DNA of 64,000 nt from Candidatus Poribacteria bacterium (GCA_965222225.1 CBDCTK010000002.1:1088001-1152000), one strand, 5' to 3'; shown: positions 14,638-63,036, counted from the first letter of the stretch. Translations and numbers: made by a program. Notes: generated from the letters alone by a model not told the origin.

Positions 14638-14902
14638 ATACCATTTCGCTTGAATAATAGTGCATATGATATCTGAATTATATCGCTCACTTTCTCCGTA
14701 GGCGGGAATCAAGCGAACGAATAGATCAAGTGGCCGACTAGGATCAAACGAGTGAATAACGAGTGCGATAGTAAATCCCGTGCGATAGGGATCCCCTTGC
14801 CCCGCCTATTTTGCGCGGAGATAAGGCTTTTTACTCCGCCCCACACAAGTTTCTTTACTTAATCCGCGTAATCAATACACTTGAATTTTAGAGAAATGGT
14901 AT
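14638..14902. mobile_element. MITE family A, copy 1 (IS630-like ends)
   Basis: TIRs ATACCATTTC / GAAATGGTAT; no ORF; colinear second copy at 56722-56911. Confidence 0.7.
14707..14793 (+). repeat. Nested 35-bp GATC-ended units (two complete, one 5' half)
   Basis: 36-bp unit 14742-14777 inside a 34-bp unit (14724-14741 + 14778-14793), preceded by half unit AATCAAGCGAACGAATA. Confidence 0.8.
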
Positions 14903-15060
14903 AACATGATAACTACAGTCAAGTATTACACCTGGCTTAAAGCGCCGTGCCCAAGGTTTAGTCTCCTCGTACCTGTTATAGCTCTCACACAAGACACACT
15001 TGCCTGTCTTGACATCCTCACTTTCAGCAGCGATTAAGGAAGCCTGCCGACCTCGGGTGC

Positions 15061-17259
15061 CTACTCCGGTTGACTCGAAGAAGTATCGATTCCATTTGCC
15101 ACCTTGACTTGCCTGCGCCGAGAATGGAGCACGGGCTCGGTGTATCCGTTTGAAACTGCTCTACCGTTAAATACTAAGTCAAGTGCCGCCTCAAAAGCAA
15201 TACTCTCGTCGAATTGAGATGACATCTTTCGATAATTTTCATCTGTCGCATTCTGCTTGTCAACAACCTCTGCCATACGCTTGAATGTCTCGACAACTTG
15301 CTCCCTAGTTACAATCTGGTGATGCAACCAATTGGCGATGTGTTGACTTGATATACGCAACGTCGCACGATCTTCCATCAATGCTACTCCATGAATATCC
15401 GACACCTTAGAGCAACCAACCCCTTGGTCCACCCAGCGCACAACGTAACCTAGTATGCCCTGAGCATTATTGTTCAACTCCTGTTGGATTTCAGACTCCG
15501 ACAATTCTCTGTCCAAGATGGGTGGTGTCAAGATATGATCTAGATTCGCACGTCCTCTGCTTGCGAGGTCATTCTGTCTCGTCACCACACTTACTTTATG
15601 GTAATGGATAGCATGGAGCACGGCAGCCATCGGGGACGGGACCCAAGCTGTACTAGCTCCTGCCTGCGGATGATTTATCTTGGATTTAAACATATCTCGC
15701 ATCAAGTCCGGCATCGCCCACATTCCTTTGCCAATTTGCGCCTTGCCCACAAGCCCGGTTTCAATCCCGATATCTACATTCCAATCCTCATAGGCGTTCA
15801 TCCACGGCTGGTTTTTAATCTCCATTTTAGGGAGCATCGGCCCTAGTTCCATGCTAGTGTGAATTTCATCTCCCGTCCTGTCCAAGAATCCCGTATTAAT
15901 GAACACAACGCGTTCCTTCGCAACACGCAGCACTTCCTTCAGATTAATGGTAGTACGTCGTTCCTCGTCCATGATTCCGATTTTGATCGTATTTCTTTCA
16001 AGTCCCAGCGCGTCTTCAACCCTTTCAAAAAGTTCAACCGTCGCTTCTACTTCCTCTCGTCCATGCAATTTCGGCTTAACAATGTAAATGCTGCCAATTC
16101 GGCTATTGCTGTATTTTCCATTTCCCTTCAAATCGTGCATGGCTGCCAGAGATGTGACCATGACATCAAGGAAGGCTTCCGGAATCTGTTCTCCATCTGA
16201 TGTAACCACTGCATCAGTATACATATGGATTCCGACATTGCGTATAAGAAGCAAACTTCGTCCCGGTAAGGTGAGGATATCTCCCTCGGGCGTCAGAAAT
16301 GTCTTATCGGGATTTAGTCGACGGATTATCGACTCTCCATTTTTCTCAAGAGAGGCTTCAAGTGTTCCTTTCATTATACCGGTCCAATTCCCGTAGACCC
16401 TAATTTTGTCAGCGGCATCAACGGTAGCGACAGAGTCTTCACAGTCTTGGATGGTAGTAATAGCGGCTTCTAGCAAGACGTCTTTTATTCCTGCAGGATG
16501 AGTCTTCCCTACCGGACTCTCACGATCTAGCAGAATTTCGATATGCAGTCCGTTGTTTCTCAGCAATATACTGCTTAATTCATCTCCTGCCTTCGTAAAC
16601 CCAACAAATTTGCTTGGATCCGCCAAACCCACCTTGCGATCTTTATCATGCCTCGCGACTAGTTGTTGTCCTTTGAGTTCGAATTGCGTGACTTCGGAAT
16701 ACGTCCCATCTTCAAGAGCGACAGTCTCGTCCAGAAATGCTGATGCCTCGGCAATTACAAGCGCGCCACGAACAGGATTATAGGTCGATCTCCGTCCTGC
16801 ACCGTCCTCTTCTGAAATCACATCGGTGCCATACAATGCGTCATATAGGCTTCCCCAACGTGCGTTTGCAGCATTTAGTGCATAACGGGCATTATCAACA
16901 GGTACAACCAATTGGGGGCCCGCAATAGTCGCAATTTCCGGATCGACATTTGTTGTCGTTACGCAAAAATCTTCACCTTCAGGAAGAAGATAGCCAATTT
17001 CGCTCAGAAATTCTTTATACTTTTCCATTTCAATTGGCTGACCCTTTTGTGCCAAATGCCACTCGTCAATCTGTTTCTGTAGTGCATCGCGCTTCTCCAA
17101 CAGTGCCCGGTTCTTTTCGCCCAAGTCTCTAACAATTTTGCCGAACTCGGACCAAAAAATATCGCCGTTCACGCCTGTACCCGGCGCAATCTCGTCCTGC
17201 ACCAGTTGATACAAACATTGGTCAACCTTGAGTCCACCGACTTCTACTACATCTGCCAT
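15061..17259 (-). CDS. glcB: Malate synthase G
   Basis: [67 protein letters not shown]. Confidence 0.97.
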
Positions 17260-17433
17260 AAATAATCCTTTCGCTTTTCTGGCACGTTAAGTGATCTGTC
17301 CCTGTGAACCGAACATAATGGGAGTTTTCCCGTGTGGATTATCACCATAATGAATCGCATTATCTAGTTGGCTGGGTTGAATAATCCAATAACCGGATGT
17401 TGGCTGAAATCTCGGTACTGATGTATGTCAGAG

Positions 17434-61161: not shown

Positions 61162-61574
61162 AAGTGTTTATCTCCTTCTCGGATGTATCAAAAATACATC
61201 AAGCAGACACCGATTGCCACTAATCTGATATTTCGTGTGTCGCCGGAGTAACGTCGAAGTCTAGTGCATCTCTTTACGATAAGACAGGGGTTGTTTGGGC
61301 AGGAAACATCGTAATACTGTGGAATGATGGGAACATGTCTGACAGAGAGTTAATCGTGAGAATATATACCACGGAAAATGCGTGAGGATCCCGATTGAAT
61401 ATCTTGAAGCATCTCCAAACTCCTCGCTGCCTTTGCCCGTATGGTGGAGATTGTCTTCACCTGTTGTCGAGGGAAATAAATAAGAACAATGGAAACCTGC
61501 CGCATGGTATCGTACCAAATTTAGTATCTAGCGCTAAAATGGTGCATTTGTGTTAATCAACTCGACTTTCCACA

Positions 61575-62588
61575 TCATACATTCACCACTTGCCCTGTCT
61601 GATTAGATTGGATTGCCGCTTCCACAATCTCCAAACCACGCAAACCGTCCTGTCCCGTGACTAGTGGGATTTTGCCCTCTGCCAGTCGTTCTAGGAAGCA
61701 GTGGACATGATTTGTCAGAGAATCGTAAAAAGTGGTTTGGCCTTTGAAAAAGTTGGGACAAAAACGTTCAATGTGGTCGGGGTCTACCGACCAGAATTTT
61801 ACGGCTCTCATCACATCTTCAATTACTACTGTTCCCTTAGTACCACCAATCTCGGTCCATTCAGATGTCCGTGTCCAGCGCGGCACTTCCTGCCATCCCC
61901 CGATTAACGTGCCTAGAGCGTCTCCCTCAAATCGAAATGAAAAAGCAACGTCATGTGCTAGATCCGTTTCACCCCGCGGGCTAAAAGAGGCATGTATCGA
62001 ACGAATTTCGCCACAGAAGAAGCGCATCAAATCTATATGATGGATTAGGACGTTCCTTATTATTGAATGAGCCTTCAGGTCATTCTTCGATCCGGTAAGC
62101 GGTTCGGTCACGCGAATTACGATATACCGAATATCGCCGACTGCTCCTTCAGCACAGAGTTCTTTCGCTTTCAAATACCCAAATCCGAATCGACGGTTGT
62201 AATCAATCGCCAGATGTCGATTGTGTCGTGCGGCGGCATCGGCCATTCGTTGTGCATCTGTCAAAGTCGACGCCATCGGCTTTTCACAGAATACGTGACA
62301 ACCAGCTTCAACTGACTTGACTACGGGGGTCATGTGTAGGTGTTCTGGGGTTGCCACTGTGACAACGTCCAACCGTTCAGCTAACAATAATTCTTCCAAA
62401 TCATCATATACGTTTGCCCGGACCGGTGCAGCGACAATTTCTGCGCGTTTCGGTTCAACGTCACAAGCTGCTGCCAACTGGGCATGCTGAGATTGAACGA
62501 CTGCCTGCGCATGGAGTAATCCGATGGCACCGCAACCGACTACGGCTACGCGCAATTTTTCGTTCTGTAATCTCTCTGATTTCCCCAC
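61575..62588 (-). CDS. Gfo/Idh/MocA family oxidoreductase
   Basis: VGCGAIG, VATPEHLH, HVFCEKPMA, YNRRF and IHHIDL motifs. Confidence 0.93.
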   Translation of the reverse strand: MGKSERLQNEKLRVAVVGCGAIGLLHAQAVVQSQHAQLAAACDVEPKRAEIVAAPVRANVYDDLEELLLAERLDVVTVATPEHLHMTPVVKSVEAGCHVFCEKPMASTLTDAQRMADAAARHNRHLAIDYNRRFGFGYLKAKELCAEGAVGDIRYIVIRVTEPLTGSKNDLKAHSIIRNVLIHHIDLMRFFCGEIRSIHASFSPRGETDLAHDVAFSFRFEGDALGTLIGGWQEVPRWTRTSEWTEIGGTKGTVVIEDVMRAVKFWSVDPDHIERFCPNFFKGQTTFYDSLTNHVHCFLERLAEGKIPLVTGQDGLRGLEIVEAAIQSNQTGQVVNV

Positions 62589-62756
62589 TGATTTAATCCT
62601 CTTTGACGAACGTCCATCCCTTACCTAAACTTAGCTATGGCACGATTCGCCGAAAATATACATGCTGAACCATGAACTCGGAAAGAATATACTAACGCGA
62701 ACTCGCTGTCAAGAATAATACCCCATGTTTCTCCTAGGGATTAAGCTTGATACACT

Positions 62757-63036
62757 CATAAGGATCAAGTTAAGCGTTTTAGGGCACAATTCACTTGGTT
62801 TCAATGTCTTAAACTGTTAGTCTCCATGCTAACTTGGAGAGGGAATTCTACCAATTCATTGATCTGCCCGCCTAAGAAGATCTTTCACAGCGCCCGTTTT
62901 CGTAGGGGCGGGGATCAAGCGACTGAACAAGGAGCGCGATAGAGATCCTTTCCCCGCTCAATAGGGACTGAGTAAGGGGTTTGTGGCGGAAAACCCGACC
63001 AAATACTAAACAAACTCTCTTAAGTTGATCCTTATG
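62757..63036. mobile_element. MITE family B, 280 bp, with 20-bp target-site duplication
   Basis: 18-bp TIRs CATAAGGATCAAGTTAAG / CTTAAGTTGATCCTTATG (1 mismatch); flanking GGGATTAAGCTTGATACACT at 62737-62756 and 63037-63056. Confidence 0.88.
62913..62947 (+). repeat. 35-bp GATC-ended unit inside a GTAG-type REP-like hairpin
   Basis: CGTAGGGGCGGG[GATCAAGCGACTGAACAAGGAGCGCGATAGAGATC]CTTTCCCCGCTC. Confidence 0.85.

Follow-up and report, generated by a model that had tools for sequence, protein, structure and literature searches.

Five loci in a 64,000-nt stretch of a Candidatus Poribacteria genome (the window) carry copies of a 35-36 nt unit lying inside hairpin repeats, a transposase gene or one another, which raises the question of whether so short a sequence can be an insertion element and, if so, what moves it. 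The first-pass annotation, made from the window alone, had proposed an ultra-small non-autonomous element or, alternatively, the signature of an unknown integrase acting in trans. We followed the unit through the window, the genome and related genomes, and an ultra-small non-autonomous element that must be moved in trans was supported; overall, that interpretation was partly supported, being right about a non-autonomous insertion element and too narrow in other parts.

Results

The unit in the window

Five uninterrupted units were recovered in the window by regular expression and profile (14742-14777, 30318-30353, 56768-56802, 58291-58325 and 62913-62947), and the unit was confirmed at all five loci first described (Table 1). 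The initial count of seven complete units and a half was close: in addition to these five there are two interrupted host units and one left half. One interrupted host (30306-30317 plus 30356-30376) is complete after removal of its insert, and the other (14706-14723 plus 14780-14793) is about 4 nt short. The heptamer GCGATAG occurs 14 times in the 64-kb window against 6.3 expected, a count attained by 0 of 100 shuffles.

Table 1. Units and their hosts in the window.
Feature	Position	Strand	Evidence or remark
Locus 1, host GTAG-type REP-like hairpin GTAGGCGG ... CCCCTTGCCCCGCC	14698..14808	+	Terminates repeated element; carries nested units
Locus 1, interrupted host unit, 5' part, 18 nt, GAATCAAGCGAACGAATA	14706..14723	+	Weak profile match 14708-14724
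Locus 1, unit left half GATCAAGTGGCCGACTAG, without 3' half	14724..14741	+	Sequence
Locus 1, complete 36-nt unit and trailing CC	14742..14779	+	Regular expression; profile E 2.5e-07
Locus 1, interrupted host unit, 3' remainder GTGCGATAGGGATC	14780..14793	+	GT pairs with GC of 5' part
Locus 2, host unit, 5' part GATCAAACGAAC	30306..30317	+	In GCCCCAGCGGGG hairpin upstream of IS1595-family transposase gene
Locus 2, inserted 36-nt unit and TC	30318..30355	+	Regular expression; at loop hot spot of host unit
Locus 2, host unit, 3' part ATAGTGAGTGCGATAGCAATC	30356..30376	+	Sequence and profile
Locus 3, single 35-nt unit in GTAG REP-like hairpin	56768..56802	+	GTAG at 56759-56762; regular expression and profile
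Locus 4, host, two fragments of interrupted DDE transposase gene	57673..58589	+	Pfam DDE_Tnp_1_3 matches 5' fragment
Locus 4, 35-nt unit with decayed ends GATT...AATT, interrupting DDE (IS4/IS5-like) transposase gene	58291..58325	+	Regular expression
Locus 5, single 35-nt unit in GTAG REP-like hairpin	62913..62947	+	GTAG at 62902-62905; regular expression and profile

Deletion of a unit had been said to rejoin its host cleanly. At locus 4 it does: with 35 nt taken out, the DDE transposase frame is restored and reads ...GDKAYNNY/PIEDSIAEVG..., with the spacing of a paralogous transposase. At locus 2 the claim holds only with a 2-nt shift, the insert being read as TCAA...GATCTC after the GA of the host loop, and its removal then leaves a perfect 35-nt host unit. 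In REP hosts, 1-3 target bases differ from those of the empty copies. The locus 1 host occurs in its empty form, GTAGGCGGGGCATCTTGCCCCG, in 15 copies in the genome, and the flanks of locus 2 (30306-30376) surround uninterrupted units at 12 places. A match to the locus 1 host in G005 carries one decayed unit in the same place; the host is multi-copy and this match is possibly a paralogue.

Abundance, sequence and distribution

The genome-wide search suggested at the outset returned 555 copies by regular expression and 1005 profile matches (E<=0.01), so that the genome, that of a sponge symbiont, holds about 1,000 copies amounting to 0.57% of the chromosome; the commonest 8-mer of the genome is GCGATAGA. 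The copies share a conserved 30-nt core that consists of GATCAA, N1N2-GA-N3N4, a GRATA loop, N4'N3'-GA-N2'N1' and GCGATAG. In genus g1 the core is followed by the tail R(R)ATC-YY, the two pyrimidines past the 3' ATC being conserved as well (+1, C 0.83/T 0.16; +2, C 0.61/T 0.34). In a second genus, g4, GCGATAG is followed by TYYT; the GATC ends initially ascribed to the unit are therefore correct for g1 and a local feature, the 3' GATC being restricted to that genus.

The unit is abundant in these two Poribacteria genera, which belong to different families (g1, 10/10 genomes including G000; g4, 4/4, with >110 units per genome). Of the remaining 162 genomes searched, five have 1-13 copies and 157 have none, and a covariance-model search gave a matching picture. 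Thousands of copies thus lie outside the window. The ten g1 assemblies with the unit comprise from 1 to 170 contigs, and it is also found in contigs of independent runs. A comparison with Rfam, CRISPR families included, gave no match, and among neighbouring copies up to 300 bp apart (278 direct, 55 convergent and 19 divergent pairs) no regular repeat-spacer period was preferred.

A covarying hairpin on one strand

Only one strand of the core folds, into a hairpin in which tandem G.A is framed by two 2-bp Watson-Crick/G.T helices. Of 547 units, 498 show complete pairing of the outer stem (shuffle mean 29%) and 520 of the inner stem (shuffle mean 41%). When 95 distinct cores were compared, the four stem pairs were found to covary, with 96.2% of cells paired versus 75.9% in shuffles and 168 both-side changes versus 37; 0 of 500 shuffles attained these values, and slid controls reached at most 48%. 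The stems vary together and the tags stay fixed. Since G.T pairs are common and A.C pairs rare on the unit strand, that strand is the folding strand. Folding energy under RNA parameters was not better than that of shuffles (z -0.1 to -1), and DNA parameters did not predict the hairpin. The 30-nt core contains a single hairpin, and separate left and right subterminal hairpins are absent.

Filled and empty sites

Empty counterparts were found both as paralogous sites, for 106 of the 547 units, and as filled and empty orthologous alleles when G000 was compared with G005, the sister nearest to it. With these empty alleles, the copies beyond the window and the lack of an Rfam or CRISPR-like match, none of the outcomes named at the outset as refuting the element has occurred. 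The best-polarised event is a 72-nt in-frame insertion in a 2010-aa gene, present in G000 only and comprising extra sequence beyond the unit; in six sister species the site is empty and reads GGATCAAG, which equals 7 nt of the unit's 5' end. In addition, 202 pairs of identical units have unrelated flanks on both sides. Many copies are broken or nested, some stand at unique, non-repeated sites, and some orthologous units are common to more than one species.

The absence of target duplication, the self-nesting and the nesting in hairpin repeats seen in the window were all supported, the filled/empty comparisons revealing no duplication. Across the genome, most copies are hosted by REP-like hairpins or by other units; unique sites, among them the 2010-aa ORF, also occur, and the description of the unit as found only inside other mobile DNA thus suits the window and not the genome. 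Clean insertions lie 3' of G, GA or GATC, and the target logo upstream reads G-W-G-S, after which come the G and A of the unit itself. The main REP target is the 5' shoulder of GTAG-type hairpin loops, most often 6 nt past GTAG (RTAG-N5-G1 spacing in 91/547 units, RTAG-N4 in ~30/547); a GTAG near the unit, where there is one, is part of the host REP and stands 4-5 nt upstream. An upstream GTAGG shares the strand of the unit in 142 cases and has the opposite orientation in 9, and what had been taken as possible parasitism or disabling of other elements is better read as a strictly strand-specific preference for hairpin-loop shoulders. In g4, GTAG directly abuts the unit at two independent loci. 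Within units, 67 same-orientation nested cases define three hot spots, after host positions 13/14, 21 and 24/25, and reverse-orientation nested units also occur.

Junctions were compared in the same way. The REP GTAGGAGCGA^TCTCCGAAT, with 41 empty copies, becomes GAGCGA(TCAA...GATAGAGATCCC)TCTCCGAAT, a clean 35-nt insertion (in parentheses). The 3' junction is often imprecise, frequently with 1-3 target bases lost or replaced. In the paralogous comparisons, whose empty copies are imperfect proxies for the ancestral site, 25 of 106 junctions are clean or show microhomology and 81 have 1-8 target bases replaced. The net gain at filled sites is 33-37 nt, and the 5' junction overlaps the target in all cases by G, GA or more.

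Orientation

Units are mostly intergenic, with 150 of 1002 lying within crude ORF-genes against 819 expected, and their orientation bears no relation to that of flanking genes (++ 200, -- 177). The observation that all copies are on the + strand holds in the window (5/5) and not in the genome (C2; 556 + and 446 -); the window lies in a region of negative GC skew, in which + is favoured. When strand was scored on local GC skew, which is patchy along the genome, the unit strand was the locally C-rich strand at 338 of 465 loci (73%) and the opposite at 127. The same bias was seen when only one locus per 20 kb was kept (112/163), at loci away from GTAG (194/272) and in empty GTAG REPs (59/82). Should the leading strand be the G-rich one, the unit would fold on the leading-strand template.

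Candidate enzymes

At 11 of 13 RAYT-type loci in g1, a set that includes orthologues, at least one unit lies within ~500 bp of the Y1 domain, compared with 15% of random and 19% of small-gene control windows of equal size. The flanking units usually have + orientation on the left side and - orientation on the right, as around a 157-aa Y1_Tnp gene in G000. They sit inside other hairpin repeats, and the enrichment is confounded because REP-type hairpins, the preferred hosts of the unit, flank RAYT genes. Neither of two RAYT loci examined in g4 has a unit within 500 bp. Downstream of a RAYT-type gene, the G000, G001 and G005 loci (putative orthologues) have a similar unit at matching positions, in which a stem change from A-T to G.T preserves pairing.

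Phylogenetic profiling against enzyme families, from which a partner of the unit had been hoped for, gave no such match: neither family tested (PF01797, PF00078) has the distribution of the unit. PF01797 (Y1_Tnp), with subfamilies pooled, is in all unit-rich genomes (g1 9/9, g4 4/4) and also in genera without units (g6 7/7, g3 8/10). RVT_1 matches are mostly weak (g1 6/9, g4 2/4) and likewise occur in unit-less genera, and the sole RT-like ORF in G000 adjoins a type I restriction-like gene. A 247-aa Y1 protein was rejected as the agent, being limited to G000 and G005 with a fragment in G009. In a non-exhaustive look, no longer element with the unit's ends enclosing a gene was seen.

Discussion

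Comparison with known systems

A literature search returned neither a description of this unit family nor one of a comparable element from Poribacteria, in keeping with the first impression of novelty; the kind does have precedent, and by analogy cyanobacterial SDRs and atypical REPs appear closest. SDR1-8 of Nostocaceae (Elhai et al. 2008) are reportedly nested in one another, with a predicted hairpin and compensatory changes; the Poribacteria unit is likewise nested in repeats and in itself, its hairpin kept by compensatory changes. Further shared traits are a size far below that of any MITE, dispersal in high copy and insertion at precise places inside other repeats. SDR5 inserts, according to PMC4390886, between nt 3 and 4 of HIP1 (GCG^ATCGC), that is, after G, as the unit does, and excerpts of PMC5861425 and PMC13756078 give Nostocaceae SDRs a narrow taxonomic range, also a property of the unit, and an unknown mechanism and function. 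In contrast to the 21-27 nt SDRs of Nostocaceae, the unit measures 35-36 nt, targets GTAG REP hairpins and itself rather than HIP1 (the host genome is not HIP1-rich, with 117 GCGATCGC), and often has an imprecise 3' junction. Judged on these traits, with size and host differing, it is at most an SDR analogue.

REPs and REPINs, as portrayed in PMC3733652, PMC6006769 and PMC3116915, are extragenic, high-copy repeats of 20-40 bp with a fixed tag and variable compensating stems; they can lie within other palindromes and as in-frame insertions within genes, and some RAYT classes have atypical, weakly structured substrates without GT[AG]G. The unit is similarly short, extragenic, hairpin-forming and abundant, with fixed tags and compensating stems, and its presence near RAYT-type genes (11/13 g1 loci, inside other hairpin repeats) may parallel the REPs that flank such genes. 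Unlike REPs, it lacks a 5' GT[AG]G or CGTC foot, having GATCAA (5') and GCGATAG (3') instead, lacks the inverted-pair layout or preferred inverted spacing of REPINs and BIMEs, and inserts into the canonical GTAG REPs of the same genome; moreover, with Y1 subfamilies pooled, the presence of RAYT does not predict that of the unit.

IS110/IS1111-family insertion sequences reportedly target REP hairpins (Tobes and Pareja 2006). Like them, the unit enters REP hairpins at a fixed place and in a specific orientation, and it has neither inverted repeats nor the usual duplications. These elements, however, are autonomous, 1.2-1.5 kb long, and move via double-strand circles, and a 35-bp duplex is too short for such intermediates, which limits the possible enzyme classes. 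A MITE of a DDE transposon was rejected, since the ends share only GATC, in one genus only, and there is no TSD. HUH transposition is normally precise, whereas the junctions of the unit are imprecise and its target motif, G-W-G-S-G(A), is weak. It also differs from IS200/IS605 elements in having one hairpin rather than distinct left and right ends, as IS608 is said to have, and is ten times smaller than their known miniature derivatives. Traits in common with this family (PMC6006769) are the lack of target duplication, a short specific sequence on the 5' side of the insertion point, one-strand hairpin dependence and an orientation bias apparently linked to replication; according to that paper, the active strand of IS608/ISDra2 has a polarity opposite to the apparent one of the unit, whose bias thus appears reversed.

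How the unit may move

Our preferred reading, held tentatively and at a little under an even chance, is that of a lineage-restricted insertion unit moved in trans as a single strand, with a RAYT/IS200-like HUH/Y1 enzyme at work on single-stranded DNA at replication forks as the most probable agent; among candidate movers, a RAYT-type single-strand enzyme ranks first. Two observations favour it, the replication-strand bias common to the unit and the genome's REPs, and the hairpin-hosted units beside RAYT-type genes in g1. The protein would read the fixed tags and the hairpin shape, and this would account for the spread of paired variants only; in addition, amplification of a REP may multiply any unit lodged in it. 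Against this reading, no enzyme family tested tracks the unit and Y1_Tnp is present in unit-less genera; the two g4 RAYT loci examined have no unit within 500 bp, and the enrichment near RAYT genes is confounded by REP hosts at partly orthologous loci. The unit has neither the GT[AG]G foot nor the REPIN layout of canonical RAYT substrates, its hairpin energy is no better than that of shuffles and the fold is unpredicted with DNA parameters, and 81 of 106 junctions, judged against paralogues that are imperfect proxies, lack the usual precision of HUH enzymes. If the G-rich strand is leading, the strand polarity of the unit is also opposite to that given for IS608/ISDra2 in PMC6006769.

The junctions could instead reflect templated copying, in which a free 3' end with a terminal G or GA, on a nicked hairpin or on a lagging strand being synthesised, pairs through microhomology with the complement or a transcript of another unit, is extended by ~35 nt by a polymerase or reverse transcriptase, and is rejoined imprecisely to the target. 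The invariable 5' overlap of G, GA or more fits this, as do the 7 nt of unit sequence already in the empty site of the best-polarised event (GGATCAAG) and the non-unit sequence that made this insertion 72 nt in all, the fuzzy 3' junctions (1-8 bases replaced in 81/106; net gains 33-37 nt), the nascent-lagging-strand polarity of the unit strand at 73% of loci and the tolerance of G.T (G.U-like) pairs. We nevertheless consider it unlikely, given that long microhomology is seen in one case only, that RVT_1 genes do not track the unit and the sole such ORF in G000 adjoins a type I restriction-like gene, and that simple template switching leaves the fixed GTAG distance and the stem pairing unexplained. 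The failure of both PF01797 and PF00078 to match the distribution, and a patchiness (g1 10/10, g4 4/4) that fits horizontal spread of a system, would also suit a dedicated recombinase or integrase, outside Y1/HUH, that recognises the GATCAA/GCGATAG tags and the hairpin with its tandem G.A and spreads with the unit between co-resident symbionts; with no candidate gene found, and no gene-enclosing element with the unit's ends in our non-exhaustive look, we regard this as decidedly unlikely. Stem pairing kept in >90% of copies, orthologous units common to several species, and the similar RAYT-downstream unit in G000, G001 and G005 (putative orthologues), whose stem change keeps pairing, might indicate a non-transposing functional motif, an RNA or DNA hairpin that binds a protein, is kept by selection where it stands and spreads among REP-like repeats through recombination or gene conversion. 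This is improbable: the orientation of neighbouring genes has no bearing on that of the unit, a transposase gene and other units are interrupted by copies, some copies stand at unique sites, identical units have unrelated flanks, and the many broken or nested copies look like debris left by insertion and not like sites under maintenance. Finally, an adapter or assembly artefact or a degenerate CRISPR array, which the near-CRISPR-repeat length might bring to mind, is scarcely credible, as every g1 genome has the unit, however many contigs (1 to 170) it was assembled into, and contigs from other runs carry it too; a CRISPR repeat was rejected for want of a regular period and of a match to any Rfam CRISPR family.

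Whichever agent moves them, the units are lineage-restricted, non-autonomous insertion elements of 35-36 nt present in ~1,000 copies per genome, and the unit behaves like one of the smallest mobile elements known.

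Unit copies in the window and across the genome

A strict regular expression recovered one uninterrupted unit at each of the five loci that the first-pass annotation had described in the window. At locus 1 the full unit is accompanied by a host unit interrupted into two parts and by a left half, and at locus 2 the insert splits a host unit. GCGATAG occurs 14 times in the window versus 6.3 expected, a count reached in none of 100 shuffles. The window occupies 1088001-1152000 of the main contig, C2, of a 5.70-Mb, two-contig genome (G000). When the pattern from the first pass was searched across this genome, it gave 555 matches (307 on the plus and 246 on the minus strand of C2, and 2 on the other contig, C1), of which 373 were 35 nt and 177 were 36 nt long. 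A profile built from the strict copies raised the genome search to 1005 matches at E ≤ 0.01. Units occupy 0.57% of C2, 409 of 547 unit sequences are distinct, and the commonest chromosomal 8-mer is GCGATAGA; the genome is not HIP1-rich (GCGATCGC, n = 117) and so does not resemble that of a typical cyanobacterium.

Uninterrupted units in the window, by strict regular expression
Feature	Position	Strand	Method
Unit, locus 1	14742-14777	+	strict regex
Unit, locus 2	30318-30353	+	strict regex
Unit, locus 3	56768-56802	+	strict regex
Unit, locus 4	58291-58325	+	strict regex
Unit, locus 5	62913-62947	+	strict regex

The window also contains an IS1595-family insertion sequence (30736-31991; transposase ORF 30859-31713, Pfam DDE_Tnp_IS1595 and Zn_ribbon_IS1595) with at least 30 copies across the chromosome at 99-100% identity, and the near-identity of these copies points to a very recent expansion. 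Two different DDE_Tnp_1_3 transposase genes with a mutual identity of only 28% lie at 14147-14617, truncated on its 5' side, and at 57673-58589, split by a unit.

Anatomy and covariation of the hairpin

The unit is laid out as G1ATCAA, N7N8, G9A10, N11N12, G13-R-A-T-A17, N18N19, G20A21, N22N23 and G24CGATAG30, followed in the genus of G000 (g1, ten genomes) by R(R)ATC and two pyrimidines. The variable positions are stem partners, N7N8 with N22N23 (outer) and N11N12 with N18N19 (inner). Both outer pairs are present in 498 of 547 units (shuffled partners: mean 29%, maximum 34%) and both inner pairs in 520 (mean 41%, maximum 46%), with GA opposite GA in 487. Among 95 distinct cores from G000 and a sister genome, G005, 96.2% of cells were paired versus 75.9% in shuffles, and 168 cells had changed on both sides versus 37; neither value was reached in 500 shuffles, and sliding the partner by 1-3 columns gave at most 48%. 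All four variable pairs occur as three or four Watson-Crick types, and there is little restriction on which outer stem goes with which inner one (CT/AG is found with seven inner types, GC/GT with eight).

The unit strand is rich in G.T pairs (GC/GT in 86 units, GT/GC in 46) and poor in A.C, and the tandem G.A present on the unit strand is T.C on the opposite one; we therefore infer that the unit strand is the one that folds. Folding with RNA parameters returned the hairpin plus an outer ATC/GAT helix, no better than shuffles, and folding with DNA parameters did not predict the unit hairpin. Rfam gave no match for the whole window at the gathering threshold and none for one locus at E ≤ 10. On its own, without protein, the hairpin is weak; it is covariation that argues for a structure and suggests that a protein reads the hairpin's shape. 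Fold-back synthesis of the second arm was ruled out because GA and GA are not complementary.

Of the GATC ends of the original description, the 3' one holds in g1 but not in g4, a second unit-rich genus from a different family (four genomes), in which the core is unchanged but the 3' tail reads TYYT rather than RRATC. A Dam/MutH-related function of GATC was dropped because the 3' GATC is absent from g4.

Host repeats, target rule and junctions

GTAGG lies at most 22 nt upstream on the same strand of 142 of the 547 units, and a reversed REP (GTAG-tagged hairpin repeat) was found at 9. There are at least four GTAG REP families in G000, including GTAGGGTGCGCACTGCGCACC (62 exact copies), GTAGGCGGGGCATCTTGCCCCG (15) and GTAGGAGCGATCTCCGAATCGCGA (41), and in those examined the insertion point follows the sixth base past GTAG, on the 5' shoulder of the loop. 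An RTAG-N5-G1 spacing was seen in 91 of 547 units and RTAG-N4 in about 30. The GCCCCAGxGGGGC hairpin is another common host, and units themselves are hosts: the self-nesting reported for the window extends to 67 same-orientation cases genome-wide, which are concentrated after position 13/14 of the host (in the loop), 21 (in the second GA) and 24/25. Reversed host units also receive insertions. Within the unit, ATAG at 15-18 precedes G24 by 6 nt and ATAG at 27-30 precedes the 3' boundary by 6 nt; both unit boundaries (the left one in REPs) and one of the internal hot spots could thus follow a single "RTAG plus 6" rule, which does not explain the other two hot spots. For 145 units with neither RTAG nor a unit-like flank, the upstream logo ends in G(0.75)-S, and many of the 45 such units listed were seen by eye to lie within other hairpin repeats.

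Paralogous empty sites, located by a k-mer index, exist for 106 units. These are not true ancestors, and some of the 3' imprecision may be later change: the 3' junction was clean or showed microhomology in 25 comparisons, and 1 base was replaced in 20, 2 bases in 31 and 3-8 bases in 30. Net gains of 35, 36 and 34 nt were found in 32, 30 and 29 comparisons, respectively. Every 5' junction is sharp, unlike the 3' junctions. The absence of target duplication is borne out most cleanly by the REP GTAGGAGCGA^TCTCCGAAT, which becomes GAGCGA[TCAA...GATAGAGATCCC]TCTCCGAAT, with 35 nt added after GA and nothing lost. In GGGG^CATCTTGCCCC REPs the net gain is 33 nt and CAT is replaced, both in paralogues and in three orthologous pairs.

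Gain and loss between sister species

The closest sister genome, G005, is 87-96% identical over a 20-kb query (others, 73-83%). In 400 kb of G005 we counted 87 units in 59 loci, and for 11 of these loci both flanks identified the corresponding place in G000. Filled and empty orthologues were found, with units present in G005 and absent from G000 (REP hosts with 33-nt gaps; a nested unit with 36 nt), and the reverse difference was also seen. At C2:1604345 of G000 a filled/empty difference with a 34-nt gap lies in non-repeated sequence, and at least seven loci are shared unchanged by the two genomes. The unit at locus 4 interrupts its DDE transposase gene as first described, and removal of 35 nt restores the frame.

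A 72-nt in-frame segment that starts with a unit (G000 C2:2921272-2921343; 17272-17343 of the extracted stretch L119) lies in a 2010-aa ORF and gives this giant protein 24 extra residues. It is absent from six sister species (G005, G007, G002, G001, G009 and G003), so it was gained on the branch leading to G000. In its empty form the site already has the sequence GGATCAAG. A donor search for the 37 nt beyond the unit found none.

Repeated occurrences were found for 64 unit sequences, and in 202 pairs of identical units neither the left nor the right flanks are related. A REP flank is common to other identical copies, as for one unit with 24 copies, of which the six shown all lie at a GTAGG tag or within another unit; this suggests that units are also carried along as REPs multiply. 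Contigs from four other sequencing runs (three DNA, one RNA), compared over 20 kb with nine unit loci, end at the units and leave no filled or empty allele to be read. The one difference seen was at C2:2004067 of G000 (position 4067 of the extracted stretch L175), where contigs from one RNA and two DNA runs have 13 additional bases that match a unit tail, a small indel polymorphism among close strains within a cascade of unit tails.

Placement and strand bias

On C2, 1002 units are grouped into 651 loci, of which 427 hold one unit. Only 150 units lie within genes versus 819 expected, by crude ORF-based gene calls made for this analysis, and unit orientation is unrelated to that of neighbouring genes (++ 200, -- 177, -+ 83, +- 76). 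When local GC skew was taken over ±50 kb with the units masked, 338 of 465 loci proved to have their unit strand on the strand richer in C. The bias persists at one locus per 20 kb (112/163) and at loci without GTAG nearby (194/272), and is shared by empty GTAG REPs (59/82). The plus-strand orientation of all copies stood for the window (5/5) but not genome-wide (307 plus, 246 minus on C2); because the window has negative skew, it is a local instance of the genome-wide strand rule. The GC skew of C2 has many sign changes rather than two arms, which points to numerous inversions or to joins made at repeats during assembly.

Neighbouring units are direct in 278 cases versus 74 inverted, with no favoured spacing, and therefore show no REPIN, BIME or CRISPR organisation. 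A gene-poor stretch of about 4 kb (G000 C2:2705800-2709700) with some 28 units and fragments in mixed orientations looks like a graveyard of nested repeats. Reading the units as DNA uptake sequences was dropped, as they are inserted, nested and intergenic.

Distribution in the phylum

A survey of the strict core pattern in 176 genomes of the phylum found it abundant in all ten g1 genomes (280-761 matches each) and all four g4 genomes (111-126), at 1-13 copies in five further genomes and nowhere in the other 157; as a control, the reversed pattern gave 0 in all 176. The units are thus far from confined to the window, to which the first pass had been limited. A covariance-model search, limited to 120 candidates per genome, agreed with this distribution and found no diverged relatives in other genera beyond the pattern search. 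Two independent g4 loci have GTAG immediately before the 5' end of the unit. All titles among the matches listed from the public species collection (80 loci of at least 101 stretches) were Candidatus Poribacteria, and the core pattern had 0 matches in viral contigs and 0 in JGI metagenome contigs.

Candidate enzymes

Y1_Tnp (PF01797; RAYT/IS200), the HUH transposase type of RAYTs, is present in every unit-rich genome and also in unit-free genera, and reverse transcriptase genes (PF00078) occur patchily; neither family tracks units across genomes. At 11 of 13 RAYT-type loci in g1 a unit lies within about 500 bp of the Y1 domain, usually plus on the left and minus on the right, compared with 15% of random and 19% of small-gene control windows holding a unit; two RAYT loci in g4 have no unit nearby. 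A unit of nearly the same sequence follows closely on the end of a RAYT-type gene in G000, G001 and G005, where it sits inside a GCCCCAG.GGGG hairpin. The g1 association is real but confounded, because the hairpin repeats that flank RAYT genes are the hosts of units. Neither this association nor either Pfam family singles out the enzyme that moves the units.

One 157-aa RAYT-type Y1 transposase gene (G000 C2:3080256-3080729; L116:1256-1729 in the numbering of that extracted stretch, minus strand) has GTAG REPs and a GCCCCAGCGGGG hairpin in its flanks, all with units. A 247-aa Y1 protein was rejected as the unit enzyme, being confined to two or three genomes. A 670-aa ORF (G000 C2:4499560-4501572; 1061-3073 of the extracted stretch L176, minus strand) has a weak RVT_1 match (26.8 bits, below cut-off) and adjoins a type I restriction R-subunit-like gene; similar ORFs exist in several g1 genomes. 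It looks like a defence-island reverse transcriptase and was set aside as the unit enzyme on account of its restriction-like neighbour. Genes flanked by units on both sides (n = 106) proved too unspecific as a pointer.

Discussion

These comparisons show the unit to be a tiny non-autonomous insertion element whose spread is structure-dependent and strand-specific and leaves no target duplication. The likeliest reading, which we hold tentatively, is that a RAYT-like HUH enzyme would mobilise it in single-stranded form at the replication fork; in its favour are the strand bias shared with the REPs of the genome and, although confounded, the units beside RAYT-type genes of g1. Microhomology-primed templated copying is unlikely. 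Mobilisation by a recombinase of unknown kind seems quite improbable. We give very little credence to a selected motif that does not move. An artefact is hardly conceivable, the unit being present in every g1 genome.

The unit works like the small dispersed repeats (SDRs) of cyanobacteria and like atypical REPs. Unlike canonical REPs and REPINs it has no GT[AG]G foot and no inverted pairs; unlike MITEs it lacks inverted terminal repeats beyond GATC, and duplication; and unlike IS200/IS605 derivatives it has only one hairpin. A literature search, for which subscription journals were mostly outside reach, found no description of the unit family or of such elements in Poribacteria, in line with the initial impression. 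To our knowledge the Nostoc SDRs are the only comparable case, their mechanism still unknown since 2008.

It is a doubtful but broader proposal that units and SDRs represent a general, overlooked class of 20-40-nt "nano-transposons" with a new fork mechanism, spread horizontally between unrelated sponge symbionts. Recognition would then depend wholly on two short tags and the shape of a tiny tandem-G.A hairpin, and new copies would be written into the loops of hairpins formed by single-stranded DNA at the fork. Either a RAYT-like enzyme that cuts on both sides of the unit, each time 6 nt 3' of an RTAG, or microhomology-primed copying into the nascent lagging strand could be at work.

How about 35 nt can carry everything needed for mobilisation is an unsolved question, for which the unit family offers a second system, independent of SDRs and far richer in data: copy numbers from the hundreds to about 1,000 per genome across ten g1 assemblies, four of them single-contig and three more in 2-6 contigs, together with the g4 tail variant, clear stem covariation, a sharp target rule and a bench-testable candidate enzyme class. 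A minimal site- and strand-specific single-strand insertion module is also of interest for genome-writing tools. In practice, units break short-read assemblies. For the symbionts themselves, units are the main source of small-scale insertions and deletions between these species, breaking insertion-sequence genes and able to add in-frame peptide segments to proteins.
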